Shown: positions 2,418 through 63,761 of the stretch, piece after piece
Numbering within the stretch: the stretch's first letter is position 1
Layout: every line of letters starts with the position of its first letter
Virus record (IMG/VR): IMGVR_UViG_3300032227_001252
Reading direction: 5' to 3' (one strand)
DNA: 64,000 bases
Source of the DNA: an uncultured virus (IMG/VR IMGVR_UViG_3300032227_001252)
Lineage: Duplodnaviria > Heunggongvirae > Uroviricota > Caudoviricetes
Program-made: the position numbers and the translations under genes
The notes under the pieces: model-generated
What the model was told of the DNA's origin: nothing
The model's input: only the letters and a program-made list of their open reading frames with translations
The model's database searches: none

Positions 2418-2888
2418 TCAGTCTGTCTCGTCTCCGGTCAGTTTGGCCCAGTCCCGACGACGATCGTCGCGCTTGGGCACCTGGCGGCCCATGTACTTGA
2501 ACATGGCGACTCTGGCCCACTCAGAGATGGAGACACCCTTCTCTGCTGCCGCACGCCTGATGGCAGTCTCTTCCTCTTCCGACATGGCGATGGAGATGGT
2601 GTTCCTCCTGCGCTGGTCTGGTTTCATGCGGGGCCTGCCCGGAGGGTTCGCACTCGGCTTCTCCTCCTTGGGGGCGCGTGTCTCTTTGAACCTCCGAGGC
2701 CAGGCTTCGGGGGTCGAGTACACGCTCAGGTGATCCTGCACGGGAGGCTCGATTTCCGGCGTCGGCTTCACCGGCGGCGGGTCTGTCTGCGTGCGCTGAG
2801 GTGAGGCTGGGGGGTTAGGGGGATTACGTCGCGGCACTTTGTTGACGGACGTAAGTGCGCGAGACCAGATGGTGAGGCGGCTGCTCAT
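2418..2888 (-). CDS. Ribbon-helix-helix (CopG/MobC-like) DNA-binding protein
   Basis: TISIAMSEEEETAIRRAAAEKGVSISEWAR matches the RHH pattern; TATGTT 6 nt before the ATG (leaderless); alternative GTG start at 2837 would give MPRRNP. Confidence 0.7.
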   Translation of the reverse strand: MSSRLTIWSRALTSVNKVPRRNPPNPPASPQRTQTDPPPVKPTPEIEPPVQDHLSVYSTPEAWPRRFKETRAPKEEKPSANPPGRPRMKPDQRRRNTISIAMSEEEETAIRRAAAEKGVSISEWARVAMFKYMGRQVPKRDDRRRDWAKLTGDETD

Positions 2889-2970
2889 GTCAGCAACATA
2901 ACCCGATTCTTACTCGGGCGCCTGTGCGCGCAGGGAGCAAGGGATTACGTCGGGACGCGGAGGTTCCAGA

Positions 2971-5739
2971 GTGCCCACGAAGCCCAAGAACTCGTCTACA
3001 CAGGACGATGCAGTCCGCCGTTCCCGCACCCGCGGGTCCGCAGTTCCTCAGCCTGAGCCGCCCGAAGAGGACGACTTCGAGGACGAGCTCGATGAGGACG
3101 AACTCCAAGACGAGATCGACGACGCGGTCAGTGACGCGTCCGCTCTCCGTGCTCTGAACGACCCCTCCACCATGCCGCTCGGTCCGGCCCCGCTCCTGGG
3201 CGGGTCAGAGACCTCTGTGGGCAACCTCTACGGTCGCGACGCGATGGCGCTCGGCCGTGCGAGCAGTCCCCGTCTGTGGGCACAGGCAGCGCAGTTCCCC
3301 ACCTGCTCGCAGCTCCGTGTTTGGCGCTGGGAGAACGGTATCCCCGTCGGCCTCGGCGCCATCGACGCGGAAGCGAACGAGGAGGACTTCGTCCGCGAGT
3401 TCTTCGAGGCGATGCCCAAGGTCGGTCAGGGCCGCATGATGTTCAAGCTCCGCCCCATCGACATCCGCGGGGAGGAGATGGGCAAGGAGCTGTCTCTGGT
3501 CATAAGCGAGCACCACGCAGCGTTGCAGGCGATCCGCCGTGCGAGGAAGGCAGAAGCAGAGGAGTCCATTCAGATGAACCAGCAGTCCGGCGCCCCCATC
3601 TACATGCCTCCCATGCAGGACGACTCTGGCGCTGCGTACGCCTCCGAGATGTCGCGCATGTTCGAGAAGGCCGTCGAAGCAGCGGACTCCCGCGCCACGG
3701 CTCTTGAAAATGCCCTGCTCGACGAGCGCGAGCGGCTTCGCTCAGAGGACGACAAGAGGGCGCAGGAGCGGATCGACCTGGCGACCAACGCGGCAGCAGG
3801 GGTTCAGGCCATCACCGAGCGCATGATGCGCGACGAGTCGAATCGTGCAGAGCGCGCCATGAAGGCGCAGACGGACCAGTCGCAGATGCTTCTGACGACG
3901 CTGACGCAGATCTTCGCGTCTGCGCAGGCTCAGCAGCACAGCATCAGCGAGACTGCCCGCGCTGCAGACCAGCAGCGCCTCGAGCAGGAGCGCCAGTACG
4001 CAGAGCGAGTGCGTTCAGAGCAGGAGGAGCGCCGCAAGCGCGACCTCCAGGAGATGGAGGAGCGCCGTAAGGCCGAGCAGAACCGCCTCGAAGACGAGCG
4101 CAAGCAGCTCCGCGATCAGCGTGAGTTCGAGATGAAGCAGCTCGAGCTCCGTGCAGAGCGCGAGCGCCAGGAACTCCTCTCGAAGCTGGAGCGGGACAAG
4201 GCAGAAGCCGCCGCCAAGCTCTCGCTCGAAGAGCGTCGTCTGGAGAAGGATCGTCAGGACAACGAGTCCCGCCTCCAGAAGATGCGCGAGGACGAAGAGC
4301 GCAAGCTGTCCGTCGAGAAGAGCGAGATCGACCGCCGCATGGAGCGCGAGCGCCTGGAATGGGAGCACCGCTGGAAGCTGGAGGCTGAAGAGCGCGACCG
4401 GCGCGAGCGCATGGCCCGCGAAGAGCGTGAACGAGTCGCCGCGATCGAGACGGAGCGTCGCCGCATGGAGATGGAGGAGCGCGAGCGCCGGGATCGCATC
4501 GACCGCGAGGAGCGGGATCGCCGTGCGAAGCTCGACGCGGACATGGCCGCGCTCAGGACGGCAGAGATGGAGCGTCGGGCCCGTGCTGAGGACGAGTCCT
4601 CGCGTATTCGCGAGGCGGAACGGCAGCGTGCCCACGAACTGGCCATCAAGCAGATGGAAGTCGCGGCAGGGCGTGACCGCGAGCACGCCGAGCGCATGCT
4701 CCAGATGCAGCAGCTCCAGATGCAGGAGCAGCGCGCCACGATGGAGGCGCGTGAACGCCGTGAGAAGGAAGAGGCGTCCAACCGCGATGCGGATCGCCTC
4801 CGCCAGCACGAGCGCATGCTCAAGGAAGTCGAGCTTCAGGCCCAGAAGGACCGGGAGCACGCTGAACGGATGATGCAGCTCACGCAGATGCAGTACCAGC
4901 AGAAGGCCTTCGGCGGTCTTGGGGAGCTCATCCCGAAGGCGAAGGAGTGGCTGGGCGATCTGGGTCTTGAGCCGGCTGACATCATTCAGCGCGTCTTCTC
5001 TCCTGAGCCCCAGGGCGGGGGAGGCGGCGGTGGCGGCGGCTGGGCCGATGCCATTCCGAAGGTGCTCGGCTCGCTCGCAGAGATGGGCAAGGTTGCCATC
5101 GAGGCACAGGCAGCAGCGAAGATGCCGCCGCGTGGGGCGCAGCAGCAGATCCCGCAGCAGCCCATGATGATGCCTCCGTTCAACCTTCCGCCGGGAGCGT
5201 CGGTCTCTCCCGTTCCGGGGTACCCTGGCATGATGGCGGTGCAGATGCCGTCTCAGCCCGGCACCAACGCGCTCGTCCCCACCAACCCGACGCAGCAGGC
5301 CGTCGACACGATCCTCGACGAGACCGTGTACAACGAGCCGTTCCCCGAGGTCGACCTCACGGCTGGCGAGGAGGCCGAGGGCGCGGAGGGCGGCGAAGAG
5401 CAGCCCGCAGTGGAAGAAGAGCCGGCTCCTCCCGCGGTCGAACCCGAGAAGATGACCATCCAGATGGCGACCGAAGCGGGCCTCTCGATGGCCACGCAGA
5501 AGCGCGCACGAAAGGCGCTTCGAACCTTGGTTCGCAAGTTGGGCGGAACCAAGAAGGAGGACTGGTTCGGGCACATCGCCGCGGCCATCCAGAACGAGAT
5601 CGGCATCTACCACTACGTCAAGGCTGTGACCGTGCGTGCGGCTCTCATCGAGGGCGGTGCGGACGAAGAACTGGCTGGTCGCGTGATGGAAGCCATGCGT
5701 GAATCCGGAATGATCCCCGCTGACGTCGAGTACGAGTAG
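2971..5739 (+). CDS. Large coiled-coil protein (922 aa)
   Basis: Long E/R-rich helical region with internal duplication (DREHAERM x2); acidic N-terminus; Gly/Pro/Gln-rich C-terminal part. Confidence 0.85.
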   Translation: MPTKPKNSSTQDDAVRRSRTRGSAVPQPEPPEEDDFEDELDEDELQDEIDDAVSDASALRALNDPSTMPLGPAPLLGGSETSVGNLYGRDAMALGRASSPRLWAQAAQFPTCSQLRVWRWENGIPVGLGAIDAEANEEDFVREFFEAMPKVGQGRMMFKLRPIDIRGEEMGKELSLVISEHHAALQAIRRARKAEAEESIQMNQQSGAPIYMPPMQDDSGAAYASEMSRMFEKAVEAADSRATALENALLDERERLRSEDDKRAQERIDLATNAAAGVQAITERMMRDESNRAERAMKAQTDQSQMLLTTLTQIFASAQAQQHSISETARAADQQRLEQERQYAERVRSEQEERRKRDLQEMEERRKAEQNRLEDERKQLRDQREFEMKQLELRAERERQELLSKLERDKAEAAAKLSLEERRLEKDRQDNESRLQKMREDEERKLSVEKSEIDRRMERERLEWEHRWKLEAEERDRRERMAREERERVAAIETERRRMEMEERERRDRIDREERDRRAKLDADMAALRTAEMERRARAEDESSRIREAERQRAHELAIKQMEVAAGRDREHAERMLQMQQLQMQEQRATMEARERREKEEASNRDADRLRQHERMLKEVELQAQKDREHAERMMQLTQMQYQQKAFGGLGELIPKAKEWLGDLGLEPADIIQRVFSPEPQGGGGGGGGGWADAIPKVLGSLAEMGKVAIEAQAAAKMPPRGAQQQIPQQPMMMPPFNLPPGASVSPVPGYPGMMAVQMPSQPGTNALVPTNPTQQAVDTILDETVYNEPFPEVDLTAGEEAEGAEGGEEQPAVEEEPAPPAVEPEKMTIQMATEAGLSMATQKRARKALRTLVRKLGGTKKEDWFGHIAAAIQNEIGIYHYVKAVTVRAALIEGGADEELAGRVMEAMRESGMIPADVEYE

Positions 5740-6902: not shown

Positions 6903-7856
6903 ATGGAACCGACCACTGCCCCCATCAAGCTCCCCGTGAAGTCCAACCGGATCCCTCTGGATGGACCGAAGGTGCATCATATCCCCACCTGGGGCGCGCT
7001 CGGTGACGGGCAGCGCCTCAACGTGATCCGTCAGATCGCGATGCAGCGAGCACGCGATCCCCGGATCACGACCCTCGCCTTGACGATCATCAAGGGTGCT
7101 GGGGTTCAGCCGCGAGACTACAAGGGGCAGGCCGCGGCGCTCCTGAAGTGGGTCCAGAACCCCCAGAACGTCTATTACATCAACGAGCCTGGTGAGCGCC
7201 TGCAGGACCCGCTGTACACCCTGAAGGTGAAGTACGGCGACTGCGACGACATGGCCCTGCTCCTGTGCTGCTTCTTTGAAGCCGTGAAGCTCGAGTGGAA
7301 GCTCGTCCTGTCTGGCCGCCAGCGCGGCACGGGGCACAAGAAGCGCTACATCGAGGGCGGCGCCATGCCTCCCGCGGTCAACTGGTCGCACATCTACTGC
7401 GTCGTCGGAACCCCGCCGTTCAAGCCGACGAAGTGGTACTTCTGCGAGCCCACGGTCCCGAACGTCCCGCTCGGCTGGGACGTCATCGACGGCGACCACA
7501 CGATGCTTCCCGAGATGGGCGGCACGGGCGTGTCGAAGCGTCCTGCAAACGGTCGTGTTTCTCGTCCCGCATCGAACCCGCTGTCGGGTCTTGCAGGACT
7601 GCTGCCCCTCGGCAACGGCGGCATCTCGTCCGCGGTTGCGAGCGCTGTTGCAACAGAGTTCGAGGACGACGCCCACGACGTCCAGCCTGCACGCCCGAAG
7701 GCGAAGTCAGAGCCTGGCATCTGGGGCATGGAGTTCAAGAAGATGCTGCCCGCCATCGTGATCGGCGTTACGACCTCTGTCGTCTCTCAGCTCCTGATGG
7801 ACGAGATCCGGGCGAGCCGTCAGGCATCCCGTGACGCGAAGAGGGTTCAGGAATGA
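6903..7856 (+). CDS. Transglutaminase-like (papain-fold) Cys enzyme with C-terminal hydrophobic segment; candidate maturation protease
   Basis: GDCDD (Cys), SHIY (His), CEPT (acidic residue); preceded by ...LLKWVQ...YYINEP...LQDP..TL. Confidence 0.8.
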   Translation: MEPTTAPIKLPVKSNRIPLDGPKVHHIPTWGALGDGQRLNVIRQIAMQRARDPRITTLALTIIKGAGVQPRDYKGQAAALLKWVQNPQNVYYINEPGERLQDPLYTLKVKYGDCDDMALLLCCFFEAVKLEWKLVLSGRQRGTGHKKRYIEGGAMPPAVNWSHIYCVVGTPPFKPTKWYFCEPTVPNVPLGWDVIDGDHTMLPEMGGTGVSKRPANGRVSRPASNPLSGLAGLLPLGNGGISSAVASAVATEFEDDAHDVQPARPKAKSEPGIWGMEFKKMLPAIVIGVTTSVVSQLLMDEIRASRQASRDAKRVQE

Positions 7857-10800: not shown

Positions 10801-13800
10801 CGCCCTCGCAGAGGCGTCTGCACTTCAGGACAAGATTCAGTCTCGCGTTCGGCAGATGGAAGCAGAGGTGGAGGCGGTCCCGCGTAATCAACGGGTTGAG
10901 GTCTTCGTTCAGCCTGCTGATGTCGTCGTAGCGGGGAAGCGCGCTCAGGCGTACGGCAACGAGCAGGACATTCGCTCTGCGATCAACCGTCTCGTGCGCA
11001 AGCGCCTGACAGCGATGGTCGCTGAGGGCGGTCAGGAAATCCTCGCGAAGATCAACGCGGCGGATCCCGAGAACAAGATGAGCCCGTTCCGGAAGCTGGC
11101 TGAAGCCGCTCGCCGCACGGACCCGTCCATGGCTGAAGTCACTACGGAAGACTTCCTTCGCTCGATCAGGCCTCGCGTCGAGGACGTGAGCGCGATGCTC
11201 GACATGTATCGGGCCCTGTCCGAAGGGAAGCTCTCCAAGGCTGACCTCGCTTCGCAGGCACTCCAGATCAAGATGAACGACCCGAACAAGGGTGTGGCGA
11301 ACGCCGTATCTGCGATGGAGGGCTTCGACGAAGTCCTGCGCATCCGCAAGACGATGCTCGAGCCTCGCGTCATCGAAGATCCGATGGGTGAAGTCCTTCT
11401 GGTCGCGACGCGCAAGCCTGACAACAGCGGCCGCAGTCGCCCCAAGTTTGAGGTCGTCATTCGCGATGGCGTGCCCTACAAGGGCTACGGCGGCAAGCCG
11501 ATGACTCACAAGATCAACGCCTTCAAGCGCATCGAGGCGATCGGGTACGTTCCGAGCGAGATGCCTGCGACCAAGGAACTCAAGTTCGCCCGCAAGGATC
11601 TTGCCGCTGCGACGTCGATGTCCTCTTCAGTCGCTCTTGCCGCTGCCCGCGGGGGCCTCCGCACGGAGCACATCGGCGGATACGGTGCTCGGAGCCTCAC
11701 CCCGTCTGCGACCCGCGGCGGAGTCATCTACGGCGAGGGTTCCGCCATCGTCGGCGCCAAGGGTGCAGGTGTGCCTGCTGCTGAAGCTGGCGGAGACCGC
11801 GGCTCGTTCGGCACTCTGGCCGGCGTCTCGCCTGAGAGCCGCATGGAGTCGATCCTTTACCGCTACCGCTCCATGTTCCCCGATGAAGCGGAGGCAGCAG
11901 AGGCGCAGATGGGTGCGCGTGGCACTTCCAGCGAGCGAATCGCGGAGAAGCGCTACTCCATCGCAGAAGCGGCCCGGCAGGCTGGGGTTGAGATGCCCCT
12001 CACCGTCGAAGAGGCAGCCGAGCGCCGCCGCCAGGCGACGATCGGGAAGCGTGAGACCGTTGCGTCGGTCTTCTCTGCGCCCGCGGAGAAGGAAGTCACC
12101 GAAGACGATTTCACTGGACTCAACAACCCGCGAGGCCGCATGCGCCGGAGCCGTGTCGTTCGCCGCAGGAACCCGTGGGGCGATGATCTCTTCGCGATCC
12201 TGAACGCGAGCACGAACGTCGAGCAGAAGCTCGCGTCGGGCATCGCCACGGCACTCGAGGTACTCGCATCTGCACCCACGGTAGCACTTCCGCCCGAAGC
12301 GGCGCGCTCCGTTGACGCGGCGGGTTTCTACCTAGGCGCGATGACGTGGGGCTTCCGGTCTCTCGGCGAAGAGGGAATGGCAGACGCTGCGGCTGTCTCG
12401 GCCATGCTCGATCAAGTTCTTGCGCCGGATTTCCTCAAGGCGATGGGTTCGGGGGCACCTGCCGCCGTGACCGTAATGGGTCAGACTTACACGCCGACCG
12501 ACAGCGACCGTCGCTCCTTCTTCCGCCAGTGGAAGGCGGGCCCGTTCTACTCAGTTCGTCCTGATGGCGGGGTGGAAGAACGTCGTCTCGCAACCGCGGC
12601 CGCCCTCTTTGTTCGTGGGCTCCGCTGGGGCGCTTGGCTGGCAGTGCGTTCCGCGTTCGAGACCTCGGAGGCGGAGCGCACCGCAATCAGCCAGAGTTCT
12701 GTCGCCTTCCAGCAGCAGATGGCGGACGCGGCTGAGAACATTCAGAAGCTGCGCACCCTCGACCCTAAGCGTCTTGGCAATGCCGCGCGCGTTCTCGCGC
12801 GGGAAGACGACAAGATCGTCGTCAAGCAGAGTGGCTTCGTCCTCACGCGCTCTTCCCTAGACGTGCTCGGGGGCCGCGCTGATGTAGGGGAAGCCGTCGC
12901 CTCTGTGCAGGCTCTCCGCAATCAGGCTGAAGGGGCCTACGCCGACTTCATGGCAGACGTCATGGGCGCGAGCCAGGGAGAGACGGTCGATCGGAGCGCG
13001 CTCACCGCCAAGATGGAGCGGTACGAGCGCGCCGGTACGGCCCTGCGTGAGCAGCTTCGCAACCTCGAGTTGCGCGGCCTTCCACTGGACAAGGATCCTG
13101 CAGTCGTGAGCATGATCGAGTCGGGTGTGGTCCACTACCTTGCGGGACGCACTCGTCCTGGCGAGCGCCCGGCACCGCGAGACACCCGTCTTCTTCGGCT
13201 CCGCGAGTCTGTGTCCCGGCTCCTGGACATGTACGGCCGCCCGGTGATCCCTGTTGATCAGAGGACGCTGCAGGCTCTCGGCCTGCGGGCACTCAACTAC
13301 GGCGAGGGCTATACCCTCGAGAGTCGACCCTCCCTCCTGGAAGCGCGCGAGATCATCGTCCGCACTACAGCGAAGGGCGAGAAGGCTCCTCCTGCCACGG
13401 CCACCCTCATGTGCCGCCCCGGGACCCGTGCTGTTCGCGAGTTCCCTGCGCCGTTCAAGCAGTACCGCCCTGCGGAGTGGGACGGCAAGGGCTTCCTCAA
13501 CGTGATCTGGCTCTCTCCTGACGGCCAGCTCGCGCGCCTGTACCGTGCTGGGGCTTCGGTCTGCATCCTGCGCCGTCACCCCAACGAGGGCCTGCAGCCG
13601 TTCCTGGACGAGGTGGCTGAGAACTGGAACCTGTGGCTCACCGACCCCGAGCACCAGCGCCAGGCCCGCGATCAGGCCTTGAACGTGTGGATGGGCCAGT
13701 CGGGTGACATCTCTGGCGCGATGTTCAAGCTCAACACTAAGGGTGATCGAGGCGCTCTGAGCCGCAACGTCATGGCCGCGCGCATGCGCCGGGCAGGCGT

Positions 13801-15377: not shown

Positions 15378-15881
15378 ATGCGCCGCATCCGTCCCGTCAG
15401 TTTGACGATCCGCAGGAACCCGTCCGAGTTCTGGAAGCAGCACCTCCCTAAGGCGATTGAAGAGTTCAAAGCCCGCCGGAGCCTGATGCTGGGTTACATC
15501 CCTGGAGAAGCCGAAGGTAGGGATCTGTCTGGTGCCGACCTCAGAGGCGTCCGCCTTCAAGGAGCCACCCTTGAAAGCAGCCTACTCACGGACGCTAACC
15601 TTGAGGACGCTGACCTCACGGGTGCCCGCCTGACGAACGCCAACCTCGACGGCGCCAACCTCACGGGGGCTAACCTCAGGGACGCCAAACTCAACAATGC
15701 CTTCTTGGCGGACGCTGACCTTACCGGCGCCAACCTCGTGTATGCAGACTTCCGGGACGCTGACCTCTCCCGCGCTAAGCTCGATGAAGCTGAGCTCTGG
15801 CATGCCAACTTCACGTTCGCATGGGGCCTGTCAGCGGAGCAGAAGGCGGACTTCAAGAGGCGGGGCGCCATCGTCGACTGA
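15378..15881 (+). CDS. Pentapeptide-repeat protein with N-terminal RRNP leader
   Basis: A(D/N)LxG repeats (ADLRG, ANLED, ADLTG, ANLDG, ANLTG...). Confidence 0.9.
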   Translation: MRRIRPVSLTIRRNPSEFWKQHLPKAIEEFKARRSLMLGYIPGEAEGRDLSGADLRGVRLQGATLESSLLTDANLEDADLTGARLTNANLDGANLTGANLRDAKLNNAFLADADLTGANLVYADFRDADLSRAKLDEAELWHANFTFAWGLSAEQKADFKRRGAIVD

Positions 15882-30800: not shown

Positions 30801-32220
30801 GTCAGGCTACCCGCTGAAGCAGTACGTCAACTACACCATGCGCCCCAAGCAGACGCTGGAGCAGGTGTTCGAAGAGACTGGCTTCCGTCCGTTCGCTGTT
30901 CCTTCTGGCAAGGAAGGGCAGGTCTCGATCGAGCGCCCTGAGATCCAGATGCGCTATGTGATGTACATCCCGCGCGTCCGTCGCGCGATTGTCCGCAAGC
31001 TCAAGACCGGTATCGCTCAGACCCTGTCTACGGCGGACATCCAGAACCTCAAGGCCGTGCGCTCTCCCAAGGGTCTGGGTCTTCGCCTTGAGCAGCTCCC
31101 GGAGCAGACGGGCCGCCGTAAGCGCACGACGCCGTACTGGTCGGATCGAGGCATCACCGATCCCGACATCGTGTCTGTGTACCCCAGCATGATCCTGTCC
31201 AAGTACTTCGTCGTGACCGACGAAAACGGCATCGGGGCTGAGGGCAAGAAGGCCGCCGCCGACACCGACCTGCTGGAGTCTGCTGCGACCACGGCCCAGC
31301 GCGCCGCAGAGATGGCGGAAGCGGTCGGAACGGTCGACGCGCTGACGGTCGAAGGCGTGCCCATCGAGCAGCTCATGCTGCAGCGTCAGCGGGAACGCAA
31401 CGCAGCCGCGCGTGCAAAGGGGAAGACCACCAAGGACAGCGGTCGAGTCTTCCTCTCGCCTGAGAACAACTGGGTGAAGTACAACAAGCTCTCGAACTCC
31501 TTCCGTCGGCTCCGTAAGGGCCGCTGGGACGAGAACGCGAACGAGGGCCGCGGCGGGTACGTCGATGGCGTCGAGATCCCCCAGTACGACGTGTTCTACA
31601 CCCTGAGCGCGCCCCTGGCGTACCTCACCTTCAAGTACTTCAACACTCCCGACGCGCTCCCGCACGTCGAGGCGAAGATGGAAGACGTGGCGAACGTCTT
31701 GAAAGTCCTCGCCCCCAAGCGCGTGCCCAACAGCAAGACCCGCGAGGTTGAGGAGTACGAGCAGGTTGAGCCTGTGCGCGTGGGCTCAATCGCTGTCATC
31801 GGTCTCGATCAGAAGCTGGCTGACGTGCTGCGTCGCCCCTCCGAGCGTCCTGTCCGTAGTCGGGCCGAGACCCTTGGCGGTCTCTCCGTGTCCGAGAGCG
31901 AGTTCATGATCTCGCCGCTCAACCTCCTGATGGTCGGTGACCTTGTCACGGCTCAGGAGCAGGCGCGCAAGCACGCTGCGATGCGCGAGCAGGGTCTCGA
32001 AGACAGGTTGAGCCTGACGCTGAAGTTGCAGGAGCAGGCGCACAGGGAAGGCACCCGCGTCGGCGAGTTCCAGGGCCGTCAGGTCTACGCTCTCCCTTCC
32101 CCGAAGGCGCCCGAGGCCGCGACGCCTGTCGGAGAGTCTGACTTCGACCTCGATGATCTGCTCGGCAACCCCCGCCCGCGCCGGTCCGCAGTTCACCGCA
32201 CGTCCCGAAAGAGGTACTGA
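27877..32220 (+). CDS. Modular polyprotein (1447 aa): SH3-like module, 2H phosphoesterase-like module, DUF6582-like module, unknown modules
   Basis: HMTIQF and HVTFA (two HxT motifs); FALPGRRWPINDRRHA; modules bounded by NP motifs. Confidence 0.75.
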   Translation: MPAPKVGDRVVEGRRFGEVVALRPQNMVDVVFSDLDYPIRRPAGALTVMQRNPKPKMPVFIAAVLTPDAKKKLYRWWSTQPLAPDPLPITKSTHMTIQFRPSLADVAAAPIGSDVMLQITGWAADNQIQAVSVKPQGVGSANAVPHVTFAIKDASVAPKLSNDLFVTPGVKKKEVEGPLLAARVGWSDGGTYHYEMPEGVQSNPGPRGGLTAREREQLEGSAFALPGRRWPINDRRHAVIAMQYMLRGFGSASDYPSILKAIAKRYPMSDKRNAEIWTFYGKHKQSLGRRKIAANPSTDLAAASKYLEVAYDDAPAYFAAEPLSVKIRGKQSQFEGRWVMPGGPLSRVSAVFGEAVANFMADKFRGGEKNYRPTRADREAVFERVNRSSGSPFTSLEDFERQQKRAFERFEKFMNAFHAAPPAVQRELTTTLQLRTPLRKGVIDLHTNPAEDVYDPAKEQFRSVVQGVYESQVRKSLRLPYNAPFTDARGHRLDSSLDDGAKRKLLSSAYAIATRQGQKHGWLMPGTQTPTEKGQARAFERLSQQQAEHAAQNRMDYERTLGAARKSGYYRVVAEEVTTGSGRKALQYKVQPTPPREAGLPAYRLSQRAAEQDAAKAERFRSSAPSQARLRMNPDRTKRREQSPGTQGELEYMARMEDFLDKPVAEAREAFRWDIDNHVRVESSLRRQIAEKGLDWDDDSEQKAVAVSRRIVNRNRAFLEKKYEARESDLEDMKPSMDEKLTSAQRIAPDPMLFKQIQHIRTLQRRDDPLFRDAMAKWIPHRNMLDIETVRAMTEGAKLGGIAGSGKNRKDSDETGRVFIPALQALNAASRSRGEPELTDDTFAVIEPKQAIDDFLRATSTEEELAGKIRLDDIPLELRSNIVEERDKKGRVTKMTLVLPYMQLEKGVIAPVEGEGKSEQQENALDRAQEQRETKKLIQTVQRGFDANEPFWDVERTVLLYFPKKDEKGQPVVGSSGYPLKQYVNYTMRPKQTLEQVFEETGFRPFAVPSGKEGQVSIERPEIQMRYVMYIPRVRRAIVRKLKTGIAQTLSTADIQNLKAVRSPKGLGLRLEQLPEQTGRRKRTTPYWSDRGITDPDIVSVYPSMILSKYFVVTDENGIGAEGKKAAADTDLLESAATTAQRAAEMAEAVGTVDALTVEGVPIEQLMLQRQRERNAAARAKGKTTKDSGRVFLSPENNWVKYNKLSNSFRRLRKGRWDENANEGRGGYVDGVEIPQYDVFYTLSAPLAYLTFKYFNTPDALPHVEAKMEDVANVLKVLAPKRVPNSKTREVEEYEQVEPVRVGSIAVIGLDQKLADVLRRPSERPVRSRAETLGGLSVSESEFMISPLNLLMVGDLVTAQEQARKHAAMREQGLEDRLSLTLKLQEQAHREGTRVGEFQGRQVYALPSPKAPEAATPVGESDFDLDDLLGNPRPRRSAVHRTSRKRY

Positions 32221-45684: not shown

Positions 45685-45873
45685 ATGGCAAAGAACCGCA
45701 AGAAGAACCCCGGCGTCGAGACGTTCTACGCCGAGATGGCAGACATGGGCGTTCCCGCTCTCGAGAACCCCCGGGGCAAGGGCCGCAAGGGTGGCGGCGT
45801 CAACCGTGGCGTCGAGAGCTCGTACTCGGCCCTCGCCGACGAGATCGCTGAAGCCACCGGCCAGTTCAAGTAG
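45685..45873 (+). CDS. Small NP-motif protein
   Basis: SD GGAGG; MAKNRKKNP...ALENPRGK. Confidence 0.7.
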   Translation: MAKNRKKNPGVETFYAEMADMGVPALENPRGKGRKGGGVNRGVESSYSALADEIAEATGQFK

Positions 45874-48381: not shown

Positions 48382-48391
48382 TGGGAGTCAC

Positions 48392-49180: not shown

Positions 49181-49192
49181 TAGGAGCACGCC

Positions 49193-50424: not shown

Positions 50425-50883
50425 ATGACTGAAGACCAGCTCGCATCGCTCTTCGAGCGCCGTCTGACCGAAGTCCGTCAGGCGTGCGGCCCCATGACGA
50501 TCTGTCTCATGGAGGCAGGGAACGACCTGTTCCCGATGCGGCGTTCGTACGCGTTCTTCTCCGTGAGCTGCAAGCCGTACCTTATCGCTCCGCCTGGAAC
50601 CTCCGTGATCGCGTTCGCGGAGAAGTACAAGAACGCTCCGCTGAGTCGCATCGAGGCTGTCTTGATGCACGAGTTCGGGCACGCGATGGACTTCCTCGCG
50701 CACCGCTACCCCACCTTGCCCTCCGATCGCGCATCCGACCCCGCGGTACACCGTCAAGGTACCGAGCGACGTGCAGATGCCCTCGCGGAGGGGCTCTGGG
50801 GCGTGAAGATCAAGTACGACGATGACACCGTGCAGTCTCTCTGCTGCGGTGTCCGCCCTCGCCCGAGTGCTCTGGGACTCTGA
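50425..50883 (+). CDS. Small zincin-like metallopeptidase
   Basis: LMHEFGH (HExxH) and downstream ERRAD. Confidence 0.65.
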   Translation: MTEDQLASLFERRLTEVRQACGPMTICLMEAGNDLFPMRRSYAFFSVSCKPYLIAPPGTSVIAFAEKYKNAPLSRIEAVLMHEFGHAMDFLAHRYPTLPSDRASDPAVHRQGTERRADALAEGLWGVKIKYDDDTVQSLCCGVRPRPSALGL

Positions 50884-52431: not shown

Positions 52432-52717
52432 CGTGCTGGAGTGTGACCGCAGACCAACCGGCTTCGGCGAGGCGATGTACGTCCGCATACACCGTAAAGA
52501 CATGGCCGTCATGGGCTTCCGCGAGCTCTGGGATCTCTTCGACAGGCTGTACCCGAGTCTGTGGGCCGTGCAGGTGTTCCCGCCTCGGGAGAGCCTCCTG
52601 GATCAGGCAAACAAGTACCACCTGTTCGTCTACGCCCACAAGCCTGAAGGGCTGAGCCTCATGGACGGCCCGCCTCGTGGCTCGACGCTCATCGCCAACC
52701 AGCGCCAGGTCGAGTAA
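52424..52717 (+). CDS. Small phage-type hypothetical protein
   Basis: AVQVFPPRESLLDQANKYHLF. Confidence 0.7.
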   Translation: MYDVLECDRRPTGFGEAMYVRIHRKDMAVMGFRELWDLFDRLYPSLWAVQVFPPRESLLDQANKYHLFVYAHKPEGLSLMDGPPRGSTLIANQRQVE

Positions 52718-53298
52718 TGCGCGTTCGACTCCTGCCCACCGTGAGGCGGAACCCTGCCGTCGCGTTCGTGACGGATCCCATGGCGTTCCTTCGGACAACC
52801 TCAGCAGCATGGGCAGAGGGGGACGGGACCCTGCGCTTGATCCCTGAAGGGAGAGAGCACAGCACGTTCGTTGACTGGCAGAAGGTCGAGCAGATGGGCG
52901 GCCCTACGGAAGACGAAGCGTGGGCTTTCGGCGATGAGCACAGTCTCAGCGCGGACGCGGCAGTGCTCGATAGGCTCCACTGGGTCGCCATAGGCAGCAT
53001 CCTGCAGGGGCGAACCTCCCAGCCCGCGGACCGCCGCGCGATGGAAGCTCTCGCCCTCTTCCTGGCCAGTGCTGTGCTCCACTTCGCACGGCAGCGCGCC
53101 AGCCTGTTGGAGCAGGACTTCATCCTCTACGACACCAACCACCCCTTCGACCGAGGGGCCCACATCAACATCGGCGACCTGATCTCGCGCCACGCCGCGC
53201 AGGGTGTCGAGGAAGCCATGTACGACCAGTTGTCGCGGCTGCCCACTCCGACCCACCCTGTGAACATCTTCGGGACGCCCACGAAGCGCCGCAAGTAG
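52717..53298 (+). CDS. Hypothetical protein with N-terminal RRNP leader
   Basis: MRVRLLPTVRRNP; TAATG coupling. Confidence 0.7.
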   Translation: MRVRLLPTVRRNPAVAFVTDPMAFLRTTSAAWAEGDGTLRLIPEGREHSTFVDWQKVEQMGGPTEDEAWAFGDEHSLSADAAVLDRLHWVAIGSILQGRTSQPADRRAMEALALFLASAVLHFARQRASLLEQDFILYDTNHPFDRGAHINIGDLISRHAAQGVEEAMYDQLSRLPTPTHPVNIFGTPTKRRK

Positions 53299-53548: not shown

Positions 53549-53971
53549 TCAGTCCCCGTACCCGAACGGGTTCTGCAGGAGGTGCGCCGTTCCAGGTGCC
53601 GTCGGCTTGCTGCCCGGAATCCGCGCAGGACGGGCCTTGCGGCCGCTGCGGAGGATGGCCATGTACTTGGGGTAGGACAGGCCGAACTGCGCGCGGACTT
53701 CGGCGTGCGAGACGCCGCTGTCCAGGAGACGCTTCAGCTTGAGCCGCATGTGCTCCATCTCCGCGGGGGAGAGGCGGTCAGGCATTTCGGCGGGGTTCAT
53801 CCGATACGGGTTGGCCAGGGGCTCGCCGTGAGCGTCAACGGGGTACTCCCCCCGTGCGCCGAGCTCCTTCTTCATGCGGTACTCGAACTCTGCGAACGCG
53901 CCGCCACCACGAGGGGCCGGGTTGCCGCGAGTGGCGAGCATCTCGTAGAACGCTTCCTGATGCTTTCCCAT
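53549..53971 (-). CDS. NP-modular protein with HTH-like module
   Basis: Four NP motifs; LDSGVSHAEVRAQFGLSYP is shared with the neighbouring gene. Confidence 0.75.
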   Translation of the reverse strand: MGKHQEAFYEMLATRGNPAPRGGGAFAEFEYRMKKELGARGEYPVDAHGEPLANPYRMNPAEMPDRLSPAEMEHMRLKLKRLLDSGVSHAEVRAQFGLSYPKYMAILRSGRKARPARIPGSKPTAPGTAHLLQNPFGYGD

Positions 53972-53980: not shown

Positions 53981-55474
53981 CTACTTGGTCCAGTGCGAGC
54001 GGAGCACCATCATGTAGATGGGGTACGAGAGGCCCATCTCGGCGCGGACGTCGTTGTGCGACATGCCGCTGTCGAGCTTGGCCAGGATCTGCGAGCGCAT
54101 CTGGAGCTTCGTGGCACCGCTGGCGCGCTTGACCGAGGCGTCGTTCGCCCCTGCACCCTTCGGGTTGGCCAGGTAGTCAGAGATGCGCGCGTGCTGGGGG
54201 AGCTGTCCAGACCGCATGGCGCCGTAGTAGCCACGCTGCACGTCACGCTCGGCGGCACGGGCGTTCATCGCCTGAGCCTTCGAGACGAAGCGGGCACCGA
54301 TGGCGGCTTCCGAGCGCGCGATCGCCTTCGCCTGAGACTTCTTGAGGGCCGCGGCAGCACGAGCAGACTTGCTCTTCGCCCCCGCAAACGTGCGGGGGTT
54401 GTTGTACATCTTGTCTTCGTACATCGCCGCTTCGTACTCGGCCTGGCGGGTGATGTCAGCCATGCGGCGCTGCGACGATGCGATGTGGCGGCCGGAGCGC
54501 TTCTTGGCTGCGGTTGCGCGCTGCGAGCCGCTCATCTGGCTGCGGTGACGGGAGGGGTTGTCGAGAGCGGAGTCCGAGTAGTCAGGCGTGAACACGATGC
54601 CCGGCTCGAGCTCTTCGTAGAGGCCGAACGGGTTGCGGCGCATCGGGCCCATCATCTGGGACATAGCGGAGGGCATCGTCGGAGTACGAACGTACTGGTG
54701 GTGGCTCGACGCTGCGGAGTGCTCCGCCTGCGCCTGGCTTGCCGAGACGCTGCTGCCCGAGTCCTGATCGTACATCTCGCCGTAGTACCGCCCGAACGGG
54801 TTCGAGCGTGCACCGAGAGCGCGCTCAACCTCGCCAGGGGCCAGCATGCGAGAGCCCATCTTCATGATCTGGTTCGGAGTCATGTAGAGCGTCTTGCCAC
54901 GCTTCGACTGCACTTCGATGCGCCCCTCGCCCGGCTCAGTGATGGGCTTGAAGGGGTTGTGGAGGAGGTGAGCAGTCCCATGGGCGGCAGGCATTTTTGG
55001 CATCTCCGATGTTTTGAGCTTGGCCCGCGCCGCTTCGAGCCCGCGAGCGAACTCGGGATCCACGTTATGGATTCCCCCCTTGCGGTACAAGAAAAGATCC
55101 GCAGCCGCCAGGGCCGCCCGTTCGCGCTTGGAGATGTGAGCCCCCGGCAGGTTGAGAGCACGGTAAATGAGTCCCCGAAGCGCAACCACGAACTTCTGGT
55201 CAGGGGGAACCTTGCCGCTGGTCACATCGCCGATCTTCTTGAGGGCCTGCGCGACGTTGTCCGGCTTCAGGAAGGAAGGAGGGAGCTCGCCGCTGAGCGG
55301 GTTGTTGTGGGTGACGAGGTTCGACATGTTGCTCTGGAGGGTGTTGGAAGGGGGAAGAGGAACTTCCGAACCCGAGTTGACACCACCAGAGGGCGTGTAC
55401 TTGGGCCAGAGGACCCGGGCAGCATAGCCACGAGCCGAGAGGATGGGCGAGATGCCGGGGTTGCGGCGGGCCAT
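53981..55474 (-). CDS. NP-delimited polyprotein (8 NP motifs)
   Basis: Starts MARRNP; SD GGAG. Confidence 0.8.
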   Translation of the reverse strand: MARRNPGISPILSARGYAARVLWPKYTPSGGVNSGSEVPLPPSNTLQSNMSNLVTHNNPLSGELPPSFLKPDNVAQALKKIGDVTSGKVPPDQKFVVALRGLIYRALNLPGAHISKRERAALAAADLFLYRKGGIHNVDPEFARGLEAARAKLKTSEMPKMPAAHGTAHLLHNPFKPITEPGEGRIEVQSKRGKTLYMTPNQIMKMGSRMLAPGEVERALGARSNPFGRYYGEMYDQDSGSSVSASQAQAEHSAASSHHQYVRTPTMPSAMSQMMGPMRRNPFGLYEELEPGIVFTPDYSDSALDNPSRHRSQMSGSQRATAAKKRSGRHIASSQRRMADITRQAEYEAAMYEDKMYNNPRTFAGAKSKSARAAAALKKSQAKAIARSEAAIGARFVSKAQAMNARAAERDVQRGYYGAMRSGQLPQHARISDYLANPKGAGANDASVKRASGATKLQMRSQILAKLDSGMSHNDVRAEMGLSYPIYMMVLRSHWTK

Positions 55475-55504: not shown

Positions 55505-55819
55505 TCAGGAAGTAGAGGTTGGGGAGGTGGGGGTAGCACTCTGGAGAGCAGCCTCGACCTTGCGGTACGAAGCGGCGTGCCAATAGGTGCACGCCCCGCC
55601 GAGCGCGGCGATGAACAAACCGTAGATCGGCTTATCCTTCATGAGCAGCAGGCCCGCCACAGCGACCGCGGGACCTCCGACTGTATAGGCGAACTTCCTC
55701 TGATGCTGCAGCACGCGCTCAGACTCGACGTCGAGGCAGAGTGCAGTGATGTTCCCTGCGGCATCACGCTGCGCGGTAACCTGTGGCGACGCGGGGATCA
55801 TGTAGAGGATGGAGTTCAT
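55505..55819 (-). CDS. Small membrane protein
   Basis: Two hydrophobic segments; TGATG coupling. Confidence 0.7.
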   Translation of the reverse strand: MNSILYMIPASPQVTAQRDAAGNITALCLDVESERVLQHQRKFAYTVGGPAVAVAGLLLMKDKPIYGLFIAALGGACTYWHAASYRKVEAALQSATPTSPTSTS

Positions 55820-56742
55820 CAGTAATCCCGGCTCGGGTACTTGGAGTCCATGAGGCGGGCTTCCTGACGATAGCGGTCTTCGCGGATCTTCTCTTCACGA
55901 GCCTCGGCGAGGTCGTGAGAGACCTGCTCGTAGTGCTCGTCGATGGCGGCCTGCGAAGCCGCGGCCCCACGCGCACCGCGCTTCGCGGCACGGGCACTGC
56001 GGAAGCGATCCTTCGGGTTCTGACGCGGAGCGCCCCGAACCGAGGGGTACTGCTGGTAGATGGGGGCCTGAGCGCGGGTGTCTGCGAAGAGACCCAGCAC
56101 ATGAGGACGAAGACTGTCTGCCGTGGCGCTGTCCCCCGTCGCGGACGCGATGATGTACTCTGCCATCATCCGGCGGTTGTAGTAGTCGCCCATGGTGTTG
56201 TCCCACAGGGGGTCGGACTCGTACACCATGCTCATCGCAACGCCGAGGTGCTTCGGCTTCGGGTACTGCTTCATGACCGCCCCGAACTGCGCGATCATGT
56301 TGTTCAAGGTCTGGATCGCCTTGGCCATGGAGGCGTCGTGGCGGGCGTGCTGCCCGGCGATGTACCCGGAGTGAGCAGCCTGAGCGGCGTCGAACTGCGC
56401 GAGTTCGCGCTCAGGGCGCATCGCAGAACGAGCCTGAACTTGGCGGCTGGAGGGCTTGCGGTCGATGTCCGTGCGGCGGGGGTTGAAGCGCATGTACTTC
56501 TCCTGTGGCGTGACAGAGAACGGGGTCCCACGCACGCGGTCGATGTTTCCGGTCAGCCTGGCGAACTGTCTGGAGGCCTCGTGGACGTCTGACCACGGGC
56601 CAAGAAGCCGCCGACCAGAAGCAGCCTCGACGATGTAATAGACGCTGTCCCCGCCCTCGCGGACCTCTGCAACAGTGTACGGAGTGGCAGAGTCAGGGCC
56701 CATCCCCGTTGTAGAGAGGAACGCGGACGGGTTGCGGCGCAT
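55819..56742 (-). CDS. NP-modular protein
   Basis: MRRNP, MRFNP, PRQNP. Confidence 0.75.
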   Translation of the reverse strand: MRRNPSAFLSTTGMGPDSATPYTVAEVREGGDSVYYIVEAASGRRLLGPWSDVHEASRQFARLTGNIDRVRGTPFSVTPQEKYMRFNPRRTDIDRKPSSRQVQARSAMRPERELAQFDAAQAAHSGYIAGQHARHDASMAKAIQTLNNMIAQFGAVMKQYPKPKHLGVAMSMVYESDPLWDNTMGDYYNRRMMAEYIIASATGDSATADSLRPHVLGLFADTRAQAPIYQQYPSVRGAPRQNPKDRFRSARAAKRGARGAAASQAAIDEHYEQVSHDLAEAREEKIREDRYRQEARLMDSKYPSRDY

Positions 56743-57562: not shown

Positions 57563-57994
57563 CTACCGACGCCGCGGGTTGGCGCGCCAGTGCATGATCC
57601 CAGCACGGTTGAGATCCCAGTTCGCCCATTCCTGGCCGTCGATGTCCGCGATCACCTCCTCGAGGGAGATGCCGGGTACAGGGGACGGGTTGTGGCGGTA
57701 GGGGTTCGTGCGGCGGAGCATCTTCCCGAGGATCTCCTGACCGCGGCTCGGGGTGGAAGCGTACTTGCCGGTCGATGCGCCCGTCTGCGCGTCCACGACG
57801 TGCCAGAAGCCGTCGCTCAGCTGCTTGAGGATGTAGCGGCGGCCTTCCGTCTCGTGGCGCTGCGTGTGCTTCGCAGTTGCTGCCCACGTGCTCTTCTCTT
57901 CATCGCCCCAGGGGACAGCCTGTCCACCAGTGGTGACCATGAAGGGGTTGCGCCGGGCCTTCCGCGGACGCTTGGGGGGCTTGTAGCCGGCCAT
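57563..57994 (-). CDS. NP-modular protein
   Basis: SD AGGAG; ARRNP, RTNP, RHNP, RANP. Confidence 0.75.
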   Translation of the reverse strand: MAGYKPPKRPRKARRNPFMVTTGGQAVPWGDEEKSTWAATAKHTQRHETEGRRYILKQLSDGFWHVVDAQTGASTGKYASTPSRGQEILGKMLRRTNPYRHNPSPVPGISLEEVIADIDGQEWANWDLNRAGIMHWRANPRRR

Positions 57995-62190: not shown

Positions 62191-62670
62191 ATGCGGCGAA
62201 ACCCCGACTACACCTGCTCCGTCTGCGGCGCGACCTTCCCCAGTAGGTCGCAGCTCAAGAGCCACGCCTACAAGGAACACGAGGTGTACGTCACCGCGGG
62301 GAAAGCCCCGACCAGTGTGCTCTACAGCGGTCCGCGGTGGAAGTGCTCCACGTGCGGGGAGGCGTTCTACACGAAGGCTGAACTGTCGAAGCACATGGAT
62401 CAGTACGCTAGGCGGTCGGCTGCGAACGCGACGCATGAGTACTTGGCAGAGGTTGCCCGGCGGCAGGCCGCGTACGAGCGCGCGCAGGAAGAACTCATGC
62501 GGAGGCAGCGCGCCGCTGCCGTTCAGGAGCGCAGTGTGTCTACCCAGCGCGCGCCCCAGAGAACGGGCGACAAGGGCGGCGCCAATGACATCGTGGTGTT
62601 GGCGACGTTGGCTATGCTCGCCGGCGGGCTCATGCTCGCGAATGATCGCAAGAAGGCAAAGAAGAAGTAG
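62191..62670 (+). CDS. C2H2 zinc-finger protein with RRNP leader and C-terminal hydrophobic segment
   Basis: CSVCGATFPSRSQLKSHAYKEH; CSTCGEAFYTKAELSKH. Confidence 0.8.
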   Translation: MRRNPDYTCSVCGATFPSRSQLKSHAYKEHEVYVTAGKAPTSVLYSGPRWKCSTCGEAFYTKAELSKHMDQYARRSAANATHEYLAEVARRQAAYERAQEELMRRQRAAAVQERSVSTQRAPQRTGDKGGANDIVVLATLAMLAGGLMLANDRKKAKKK

Positions 62671-62688: not shown

Positions 62689-63291
62689 ATGGAAGACACC
62701 CCCTTCGCTGAAGCCGAGCGTGTGTTCGAGCACGTTCTTGATCTGATGGAGCAGGCCATTGAGGCCAAGTACCCGGGTGCAGGCGCGCTCCAGTACCACT
62801 TCCACTGGATGGGCGATCTGGCCGAGTACCGGCGCATCGGAGCCACCTTCAGGGACGCGCAGGATCGCTCCCGCGAGGCGGTTTTCCACCTGCCGGGCTC
62901 CACAGCGTTCACCTCCCACACGCGGGAGCGGCTACTCAGCAGCGAGCTGCAGTTGACGAGTCAAGACTACGCGCTGTTCCTCGACCTCGTGCACCTGGGC
63001 GGGTGCATCGGCTGCTGGAAGGTGGACGGCTTGATGTCGAAGAAGGCCAACGCGGAGGTGTACGGGCCCGGCATCACGTTGGGCCCCCTGCCGATCCAGC
63101 GCTACACCTACATCACGCCACTCGCCATCCTGGCCGCGTTTGCGGGAGGGACGCTCGAAGAGGCATGGCCTGACCGCAGGTTCCACATCGAGACCGCGTG
63201 GTACTTGTGGCAGGCGCGCCACGCCGAAGTGCGCGTAGCAGAGACCCCTGACGTCTTCCCTGAGGATCTGGACGCGCCCTCGTACCTGTAG
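62689..63291 (+). CDS. Hypothetical protein
   Basis: 200 aa; TACTGT-6 nt-ATG leaderless start. Confidence 0.65.
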   Translation: MEDTPFAEAERVFEHVLDLMEQAIEAKYPGAGALQYHFHWMGDLAEYRRIGATFRDAQDRSREAVFHLPGSTAFTSHTRERLLSSELQLTSQDYALFLDLVHLGGCIGCWKVDGLMSKKANAEVYGPGITLGPLPIQRYTYITPLAILAAFAGGTLEEAWPDRRFHIETAWYLWQARHAEVRVAETPDVFPEDLDAPSYL

Positions 63292-63353
63292 GTGTGCTAC
63301 CAGGAGGCCTCGGCGGGCCGCAGGACTGCTACACCTTGACACGAGAGGACATC

Positions 63354-63761
63354 ATGGCCCGCACCACTCTTCGAGCACTTCGGACCCGCATCGACACCAT
63401 CAACTCCGCGCTCGTGAACGCGGAGGCGCAGCTCCGCCGGCACTACGCGATGGGCGCTTTTTTCCGCGACCCGCGCTCCATCGAGCTTGAGGCGCAGGTC
63501 AAGATGCTGGAAGAAGCTGCGATGAAGGCAGCGGAAGAGGCGTACATGGTCTACCGCAACGAGGATGTGGCTATGGAGGCTGCACGGCACTCCGCCCCTG
63601 CCCTCCAGCGCCTCAGCGAACTCATCCGCAAGAAGGATAGCATCCGCTCCTCGCGGAACATCACGTTCCGCCGGAACCCGAACCGCGAGCTCGACCTGCA
63701 GCCCGATTCGCGCTCGATGGCTCAGGGGAACATGATGCGCAAGGCCTGGATGCGTGGGTAG
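63354..63761 (+). CDS. Helical hypothetical protein with C-terminal RRNP
   Basis: SD GAGGA; FRRNPNR. Confidence 0.7.
   Translation: MARTTLRALRTRIDTINSALVNAEAQLRRHYAMGAFFRDPRSIELEAQVKMLEEAAMKAAEEAYMVYRNEDVAMEAARHSAPALQRLSELIRKKDSIRSSRNITFRRNPNRELDLQPDSRSMAQGNMMRKAWMRG

Follow-up and report, generated by a model that had tools for sequence, protein, structure and literature searches.

An Asn-Pro motif as a putative seam between protein modules of an uncultured phage

The window analyzed here is a 64,000-nucleotide (64-kilobase [kb]) stretch of DNA from an uncultured virus of the class Caudoviricetes (IMG/VR record IMGVR_UViG_3300032227_001252), with a base composition of 64 to 65% G+C. A gene call yielded about 79 proteins with 20,037 amino acids in total, the majority of which have no family match. 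Recognizable with Pfam, PHROGs and NCBIfam are a NikA-like ribbon-helix-helix protein, a pentapeptide-repeat protein, two peptidoglycan-binding proteins, an HNH endonuclease, an SNF2 helicase, a DndB-like protein, a GDSL hydrolase, a tyrosine recombinase, a phage lysozyme, a fragment-sized PolIII-alpha-like protein, a dual-specificity phosphatase and a C2H2 zinc finger protein; no gene for a capsid, portal, terminase or prohead protease could be recognized with these collections among the proteins of the window, which is part of a contig of up to 178 kb. Metagenome runs containing window DNA are labeled freshwater, lake or river, and only five short metagenome loci were recovered as relatives, cited below by handles such as L002. 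No relative was found among 50,697 phage records by megablast with the DNA or by tblastn with three large or mosaic proteins, among IMG/VR viral contigs with a 497-residue mosaic protein or the alignments A1 and A4 as queries, or in a search of GTDB genome contigs. The subject of this report is the dipeptide asparagine-proline (Asn-Pro; NP), which recurs throughout the proteins of the window. A preliminary description of this DNA had noticed short basic leaders ending in NP on many unrelated proteins and had proposed that they are a portable tag that directs cargo into the virion and/or marks a cleavage site. All eight N-terminal examples that it listed are present in the sequence as written (Table 1).

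The abundance of NP was assessed in the 79 called proteins against 2,000 shuffles within each protein. NP was observed 85 times (shuffle mean, 36.9 ± 5.8), R.NP (arginine, any residue, NP) 21 times (mean, 2.6), RRNP 10 times (mean, 0.22) and NPF 9 times (mean, 1.3), and none of these four counts was reached in any of the 2,000 shuffles; the reverse dipeptide, PN, was found 21 times, with a shuffle mean of 37. NP[FWY] occurs 13 times, versus 2.8 times in shuffles. No dipeptide in these proteins exceeds NP in over-representation (observed-to-expected ratio, 2.35), and this ratio is 2.27 to 2.35 in the window and 4.5 to 5.2 in the loci of the relatives. Ten of the 79 proteins have [RK]xNP within their first 25 residues (0.33 in shuffles; reached in 0 of 2,000), and four have NP with basic residues directly behind it within their last 30 residues (0.34 in shuffles; reached in 2 of 2,000). 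The control tetrapeptides RRDP, RRQP, RRSP, RRTP, RRNA, RRNG, PNRR and RRPN are each absent from the called proteins. The observation made in the preliminary description is confirmed by this enrichment of NP and RxNP over shuffled controls. A BLAST comparison among the tagged proteins showed that they are unrelated, save for one module common to the proteins encoded at 53549 and 53981.

The motif is neither evenly distributed nor always basic. NP density is 16 to 32 per 1,000 residues in a few proteins, about 2 per 1,000 in the helicase, which is the expected value, and 0 in the polymerase; five genes at 53.5 to 58 kb, where the excess is strongest, contain 21 of the 85 sites. At least three Arg or Lys residues lie within 6 residues on one side of 16% of the NP sites, compared with a background of 7.6% and with 2 to 7% for other X-Pro dipeptides, and at 59% of the sites, the 6 residues on either flank include fewer than two basic ones. 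A separate observation concerns proteins starting with Met-Pro, of which there are 8 among the 79, four of them consecutive (25556, 26246, 26871 and 27287; window 25556-27814 and others). MP ranks third among dipeptides in over-representation (52 versus 31), and loss of Met from such starts would leave an N-terminal Pro, identical to the product of a cut between Asn and Pro.

The preliminary description presented NP as a portable tag; this element is real, but the main pattern had been missed. Most often, NP marks a joint inside a protein, where exchangeable modules meet, with Arg or Leu two residues earlier. With the 497-residue protein as the query, we obtained 31 metagenome homologs, which are mosaics of modules of 20 to 110 residues, and almost every joint in these proteins reads x-N-P. 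The query, the 31 homologs and three window paralogs make up a family set of 35 proteins. Cutting these at every NP gave 268 pieces with a median length of 43 residues, which cluster end to end into module families, here denoted by letters. The module order of the window protein is B-x-A-S-C-R-T-U, and other orders include B-A-E-G, B-A-F-G, B-A-F-E-G, B-A-F-E-I-J, B-C-N-A-D-O-P, K-C-A-D-L-M-H-Q and W-X-Y-A-R/D. One copy of module A is present in 31 of the 35 proteins, and in B-type proteins, B-A stands in front and variable modules follow behind; the joining of a constant module to variable ones suggests that the parts function while joined.

The coincidence of module borders with NP was also seen in a test that is independent of cutting at NP. 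Borders of BLAST matches fall within 3 residues of an NP in 47% of 298 internal starts (random, 13%) and in 28% of 512 ends (random, 12%). Among the 19 dipeptides with at least 100 occurrences in the family, NP ranks first in this respect, with 54% of starts and 28% of ends, compared with medians of 4% and 8% for the other 18. The family contains 17.8 NP per 1,000 residues versus 2.4 PN. An NP is found within the first 20 residues of 32 of the 35 proteins, and 20 of the 35 end 1 to 9 residues past an NP (with FGG, FGY, FGD, W, RRR or K..KNRKR). The six-residue leader of the window protein, MARRNP, is kept in 20 of 22 homologs with a B-type N terminus and reads MARHNP in one and MARRSP in one. 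Modules are also met outside the long mosaics. Those of the 140-residue protein, which is encoded by a separate gene in the window, correspond to inner portions of longer proteins in relatives; the last module of the 143-residue protein is the C-terminal module H of homologs P0025 to P0032; and the L002 homolog of the 307-residue protein is without the first module, with the break exactly between NP and RRTD. In a comparison of the window with L002, the neighboring polymerase-like protein shows 86% identity, but the mosaic protein shows 42% and is rearranged. The mosaic modules matched no known family in Pfam or PHROGs, a Foldseek search of the PDB with the model of the 497-residue protein gave nothing at an E value of ≤0.001, and a wide VIA-align search with the same model gave generic helical matches only, with Z below 8. 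Gene fusions that retained ribosome-binding sites at internal M..NP joints were considered and gained no support here, with a Shine-Dalgarno-like word at 3 of 11 such joints versus 17% of all internal Met codons.

The signal resides in the protein and not in the DNA. The Arg codons differ between tag sites, the DNA upstream of tagged starts is dissimilar, and the Asn and Pro codons at NP sites follow ordinary usage, with AAT also present at its ordinary rate. At 36 NP sites in mosaic genes, drawn from the window and from two relatives, the conserved DNA is AAC CC[GC] only (5 to 6 bases), and the flanks hold no more information than codon bias gives. These varying codons indicate selection at the protein level, and a DNA motif as the cause was therefore rejected. 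In the same 36 sites, position -2 is Arg in 17 and Leu in 16, so that the motif is [R/L]-x-N-P and not merely a basic tag. This shape fits a known helix-end signature, in which a basic or hydrophobic residue is followed by Asn and then Pro. Conservation was measured in homolog alignments for 15 NP sites (matches of ≤90% identity; at least three subjects) and is 0.71 for N and 0.82 for P, compared with 0.51 for other Asn, 0.54 for other Pro and 0.41 for all other residues. Around the dipeptide, it is 0.60 at position -2, 0.22 at position -1 and 0.41 at position +1. The part of the preliminary description that spoke of a portable element on unrelated proteins is thus borne out at the protein level by codon variation, by the absence of BLAST relationship between carriers and by conservation in homologs. 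None of the tests made here lent support to its other part, virion targeting or cleavage.

AlphaFold models were obtained for the 497-residue protein (21 aligned sequences; mean predicted local distance difference test [pLDDT] score, 61.5) and for its homolog P0003 (mean pLDDT, 64.1), which together contain 18 NP sites. All 18 lie outside helices and strands, and 16 lie in, or no more than 2 residues from, a segment with a pLDDT below 50, such zones making up 40 to 42% of the residues; this includes all eight sites of the 497-residue protein, which are in or within 2 residues of low-confidence linkers. Nine of the 18 follow the last residue of a helix or strand by 1 to 5 residues, and the next element usually begins 2 to 14 residues later. 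Module A (residues 175 to 222), modeled with a pLDDT above 90 as two strands and two helices, is bounded exactly by NP173 and NP225. In these models, NP behaves as the closing mark of a module.

A strain-level variant provides a view of module exchange over a short distance. In contigs from three runs of a separate study (X2 to X4), window position 54908 is joined to position 55302, and the intervening 393 bases (54909-55301) are replaced by 48 other letters. The replaced DNA encodes residues 58 to 189 of the 497-residue protein, and the upstream break lies inside the codon for Asn58. An optional helical module (Table 1) is missing in homolog P0002, which is likely to have the form of the X2-X4 variant; the 48 letters would then be the diverged start of module A. 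The 7-base DNA word CCACAAC is common to both junction zones of the optional module. Together, the break in X2 to X4 and the layout of P0002 indicate that gain or loss of modules at NP codons appears to occur among close relatives. Two more contig joints, 54332-56026 and 57814-57912, have short sides (21 to 26 letters).

Outside the mosaic family, the motif also stands at or near the ends of individual proteins (Table 1). The leader of the pentapeptide-repeat protein falls outside the family domain. In a search of 1.84 billion representatives, the output of which was swamped by long repeat proteins, the best 150 relatives align from query residue 17 or later, and residues 1 to 60 used as the query gave no homologs. 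The uncertain start of the 193-residue protein has two candidates, as the ATG at 52717 overlaps the preceding stop and the gene caller chose an ATG at 52780, 21 codons downstream. In the ribbon-helix-helix protein, the RRNP-containing stretch occupies residues 19 to 23 of the longest open reading frame (ORF). The start of the C2H2 protein is fixed by the Pfam match at residues 7 to 30, and its leader is kept as M[RK]RNP in four of five homologs, the fifth of which starts with M-P. This protein has two C2H2 fingers, which are rare in phages, and at its end a hydrophobic stretch and a Lys-rich tail, a layout that is kept in homologs and that would suit membrane anchoring by the tail. In the relative L005, an ORF at 2622-4118 on the minus strand has a basic leader of about 19 residues, MKRRIILTSRPPSRRRRNP, ending in RRRRNP; judged by HD-type motifs read by eye, this ORF looks like a CCA-adding tRNA nucleotidyltransferase. 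It sits between the recombinase and the homolog of the 52039 gene, a place where the window has none. The C-terminal examples of the preliminary description are present too, but only the protein at 57563 has the motif at its true terminus, the others having it 13 to 29 residues before the end. A twin-arginine export signal was rejected by eye, since most leaders have no hydrophobic stretch after RRNP.

Table 1. Positions of NP-bearing leaders, tails and modules and of two candidate motif readers in the window
Feature	Coordinates	Strand	Protein or gene	Remarks
VPRRNP at the end of the N-terminal 23 residues, then PNPP	2820..2888	-	NikA-like ribbon-helix-helix protein, gene 2418-2888	
Weak transglutaminase-core (papain-like) match	6903..7856	+	317-residue protein	Candidate motif reader
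Internal arginine run between two NP sites, NPRGRMRRSRVVRRRNP	12125..12175	+	2,356-residue protein, gene 7853-14923	
C-terminal NPLRRRMNP... segment	14834..14920	+	2,356-residue protein	20 to 29 residues before end
Leader MRRIRPVSLTIRRNP	15378..15422	+	Pentapeptide-repeat protein, gene 15378-15881	Pfam Pentapeptide, E 4.9e-36
C-terminal tail NPRPRRSAVHRTSRKRY	32167..32217	+	1,447-residue protein, gene 27877-32220	NPRPRR 15 residues before end
C-terminal tail NPRGRAMLTVRPSRV	32956..33000	+	260-residue protein, gene 32221-33003	NPRGR 13 residues before end
Leader MAKNRKKNP	45685..45711	+	62-residue protein	Then second NP with basic run (NPRGKGRKGG)
Small HExxH protein	50425..50883	+	152-residue protein	Candidate motif reader; conserved in relative L003
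Leader MRVRLLPTVRRNP	52717..52755	+	193-residue orphan protein	Start uncertain
Modules N-I-x-J	53549..53971	-	140-residue protein	4 NP sites; end NPFGYGD
Mosaic protein	53981..55474	-	497-residue protein	8 NP sites: residues 5, 58, 173, 225, 281, 306, 359, 437
Optional helical module, residues 60-174	54953..55297	-	497-residue protein	Bounded by H-N-N-P and H-N-P; missing in homolog P0002 and in contigs of X2 to X4
Leader MARRNP	55457..55474	-	497-residue mosaic protein, gene 53981-55474	
Start MRRNP	55819..56742	-	307-residue protein	3 NP sites
Leader MAGYKPPKRPRKARRNP (...RKARRNP), tail NPRRR	57563..57994	-	143-residue protein	4 NP sites
Leader MRRNP directly ahead of C2H2 zinc finger	62191..62205	+	C2H2 protein, gene 62191-62670	
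RRNP (in FRRNP)	63669..63680	+	135-residue orphan protein, gene 63354-63761	26 residues before end

The explanation that we favor, tentatively and with considerable doubt, is that [Arg/Leu]-x-Asn-Pro is a protein-level seam of this phage lineage, which is left uncut, ends modules and caps basic arms. An Asn-Pro placed directly behind the last helix or strand would stop that element and thereby close a folded module. The same seam would cap Arg/Lys-rich arms, in the order basic arm, NP and domain at N termini and domain, NP and basic arm at C termini. Such a uniform, neutral stop would let modules enter or leave a protein, change order, become separate genes or move to the front of a gene without harm to their neighbors, and the repeated Asn-Pro codons, together with a neighboring codon, may supply a few bases of microhomology for exchanges. 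The N-terminal tags would then be the shortest form of the seam unit, found mostly on proteins that seem related to nucleic acids (the ribbon-helix-helix protein, the C2H2 finger, helix-turn-helix-like modules and the tRNA nucleotidyltransferase-like ORF of the relative), where the putative basic arm would add contacts with nucleic acid. A generic excess of NP of 1.4 to 1.65 in two unrelated high-GC phages, described below, fits a structural role of the dipeptide that is amplified here.

Several points weigh against this explanation. Just one of the 18 modeled NP sites starts a helix, and the view of NP as the end of an element comes from two medium-confidence models of a single family. Across the whole window, a crude composition test gave a weak signal, with a sharp change at 26% of NP sites versus 15% of all positions. 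A linker that is just a hinge would usually drift, but in this fast-evolving family no residues are better kept than N and P, and joints that are limited almost entirely to one dipeptide are suggestive of a single reader. A pure helix stop leaves unexplained why 20 of the 35 family proteins end so shortly after an NP and why 32 have one so early, and the leaders MRRNP and MARRNP have no preceding helix to stop.

Four other explanations were weighed. An ordinary composition effect, in which NP is favored in high-GC phage proteomes and the remainder is due to chance and to shared ancestry of paralogous modules, seems very improbable. With the same gene caller, phage L5 has NP at 1.39 times the expectation (11th among dipeptides) with 5 R.NP, and phage phiC31 has NP at 1.65 times (3rd) with 4 R.NP, so that part of the plain NP excess of the window is generic; in addition, about one quarter of the window's NP sites lie within one related gene cluster. 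However, RRNP is found 10 times in the window and not at all in either control, the ratio of NP to PN is about 4:1 as opposed to 1.2:1 in L5 and phiC31, and outside the cluster at 53.5 to 58 kb, NP is still observed 64 times versus 33 expected, with 6 RRNP. Together with the early [RK]xNP of 10 proteins that are unrelated to each other, these counts and controls largely refute composition as the explanation. Only a little less improbable in our estimation is a recombination scar, in which swaps occur at the short repeat AACCC and NP is merely what that repeat encodes. That module borders coincide with NP, that the H-N-(N)-P codons at the two ends of the optional module share 7 bases and that the X2 to X4 contigs break at the first of them would be expected from such a scar. 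Yet just 5 to 6 bases are conserved at the 36 sites compared, third codon positions and Arg codons vary, AAT is used at NP at its ordinary rate, NP is conserved inside orthologous modules without any swap, and leaders at gene starts have unlike upstream DNA.

The two remaining explanations assume that the motif is read. In one of them, which we consider unlikely but by no means far-fetched, [R/L]-x-N-P is cleaved by a protease of the phage or its host or cuts itself at the Asn-Pro bond, the basic leaders target cargo into the particle and are then removed, and the mosaics are polyproteins. This would account for a single, uniform, conserved motif at nearly all joints and at both kinds of protein end, for leaders that differ in length and sequence except for their basic residues and NP, and for the unrelatedness of the cargo proteins. 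The C2H2 homolog without the tag begins with M-P, and loss of its Met would expose an N-terminal Pro like the one left by a cut between N and P. The pattern of a hydrophobic or basic P3, any P2 and a fixed P1 parallels the AXE sites of SPN3US and the sites of T4 gp21. The window encodes two possible peptidases (Table 1): the HExxH protein, which resembles ImmA/IrrE/U49/M48 peptidases in ESM Atlas language-model features (0.91, to be taken as a lead only) and has no sequence match in Pfam, NCBIfam or the PDB, and the 317-residue protein, whose Pfam Transglut_core match (E value of 8.7e-4; 20 bits) is under the cutoff of 23, with Cys and His in plausible places and without a notable match in a PDB sequence search. 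No link of either protein to NP was found. Further arguments against cutting are that no virion genes or prohead protease are recognizable in the 64 kb covered of a contig of about 178 kb, that the one module A joined to variable modules in 31 of 35 proteins argues for uncut function, and that some NP sites are incidental, as the NP in the protein at 48821 is TP in its L003 homolog. To our knowledge, X-Pro bonds are poor protease substrates that most endopeptidases do not cleave. The precedent for self-cleavage is the Asn-Pro cut of FlhB/SpaS-type asparagine peptide lyases, which takes place within NPTH (PMC4620466). The preliminary description had likewise invoked FlhB and YscU, but none of the 85 NP sites reads NPTH and the position that follows NP varies, which makes general self-cleavage at 85 sites unlikely. 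In its widest form, this idea would make [R/L]-x-N-P the cut-and-sort code of an undescribed processing system in a wide group of uncultured phages, with leaders loading cargo and mosaics cut by an enzyme or by asparagine-lyase chemistry, and the cargo would comprise the zinc finger, ribbon-helix-helix and pentapeptide-repeat proteins and the tRNA nucleotidyltransferase-like ORF of the relative; we regard this version as doubtful. We know of no phage maturation system with Asn-Pro specificity. Alternatively, NP and its flanks (RxNP and NP[F/W]) could be a docking motif in flexible linkers and tails, bound uncut by one phage or host hub that would bring many unrelated proteins to a single location, a reading that we think improbable. 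The location of NP sites in low-confidence, probably flexible stretches of the models would suit docking, as would the multiple copies per protein, the excess of NPF and NP[FWY] and the many proteins that end in NPFGG, NPFGY or NPW. However, the residue after NP is variable overall, the motif also abuts folded domains, as in MRRNP-DYTC of the zinc finger protein, and position -2 is Leu as often as Arg, so that there is no single charge pattern. Skipping of the 2A/StopGo type, which needs an NPG-P core preceded by a D(V/I)ExNPGP-type stretch, was also considered and rejected, as among the 85 NP sites one reads NPGP and eight read NPG, and the upstream residues are variable.

The motif has partial counterparts in several known systems. 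A 10-residue leader suffices for packaging in T4, and the sites of the SPN3US protease gp245 read AXE (PMC9026906, PMC10052503). The capsid targeting and prohead-protease propeptides of T4 (gp21) and SPN3US (gp245) share with the window an N-terminal leader that is common to unrelated proteins, one fixed residue preceded by a variable one, and carriers that are paralogous, fast-evolving proteins (PMC9026906, PMC10052503). In contrast, the window motif is a fixed Asn-Pro, is mostly internal, is also found near C termini and has leaders of as few as 5 residues. Short peptides that border constant and exchangeable parts are VENN of CdiA toxins and the His boxes and glycine-rich motifs of T-even tail-fiber adhesins, and conserved DNA around these motifs is thought to aid homologous exchange. 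The mosaic family of the window is similar in having a short conserved peptide at the borders of exchanged modules, but it has no extended conserved junction DNA (5 to 6 bases), and its motif stands at each module border, with as many as 10 copies in one protein, and is found on unrelated proteins as well. Asn-Pro cleavage is known from reovirus mu1, and FlhB, YscU, SpaS and mu1 all have the same dipeptide as the window. In FlhB, YscU and SpaS, however, there is one folded NPTH context, once per protein, while the sites in the window have varied flanks and, to judge from the models, probably lie in flexible linkers. SPKK and SPRR of sperm histones and the SPRRR repeats of the hepatitis B core tail are turn-capped basic DNA-binding motifs, and the linker TGEKP precedes C2H2 fingers. 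Like these, the window motif places a polar residue and Pro beside Arg/Lys runs at the edge of a DNA-binding domain, with MRRNP-DYTC at the place of the finger linker; unlike these, it has Asn instead of Ser or Lys, and the majority of its sites are poor in basic residues, as given above. Finally, the polyvalent proteins of phages and conjugative elements, reportedly described by Iyer et al. in 2017, are likewise strings of unrelated small modules in mobile-element proteins that are quickly reshuffled, but the modules of the window match no known family, and we know of no uniform seam peptide described for polyvalent proteins. By its sequence, the motif appears akin to the junction or linker motifs of modular proteins. 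Literature searches did not turn up any seam or tag of phages that is built on Asn-Pro or RxNP.

If the reading of the motif as a seam is true, this lineage would have a simple and uniform grammar for assembling proteins from portable parts. This would explain the fast reshuffling of host-interaction proteins, as illustrated by the different identities of the mosaic and polymerase-like proteins between the window and L002, and it would provide a ready rule for dividing orphan proteins into domains for structural and functional work. Recognition of the seam by a protease or a docking partner would, in contrast, make it a new code for processing or sorting, which could help to predict the cargo that uncultured phages inject or package, and a portable tag.

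Some other genes of the window are of note. The 691-residue protein encoded at 21687 was considered as a possible capsid protein, and ESM Atlas returned no usable lead for it. The DndB-like (DGQHR) protein, encoded at 38960-40255, is about 30% identical to proteins of Pseudomonas phages of about 96 to 107 kb (21 records) and is the sole one of four searched proteins with relatives among cultured phages. A tandem array at 47256-49555 encodes small proteins of 120 to 180 residues, every one of which begins with MAN and none of which matched a known family; BLAST similarity was seen between the proteins at 47256 and 47829 (42% identity) and between those at 47829 and 49193, and homologs are present in L003 in the same gene order. 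The PolIII-alpha-like protein (58017-59516, minus strand; 499 residues) aligns with PolIII alpha over the NTPase and finger parts only (Pfam E value of 7.3e-30), is far shorter than the bacterial alpha subunit and has the basic tail RRKRR at its end; its counterpart in L002, at 1062-2555, is the 86% identical protein mentioned above. The gene at 24719-25486, which encodes an HNH/NUMOD4 homing-type endonuclease, lies amid orphan genes that look highly expressed and resembles a mobile insert. Peptidoglycan-binding domains are found in the proteins encoded at 18220-19608 and 40330-41313, and a separate lysozyme is encoded at 56745-57314. The protein at 40330-41313 has endolysin-like PHROG matches and a hydrophobic N-terminal stretch immediately after an NP (MSQPVLNP-VNIGAVGAAVLL...).

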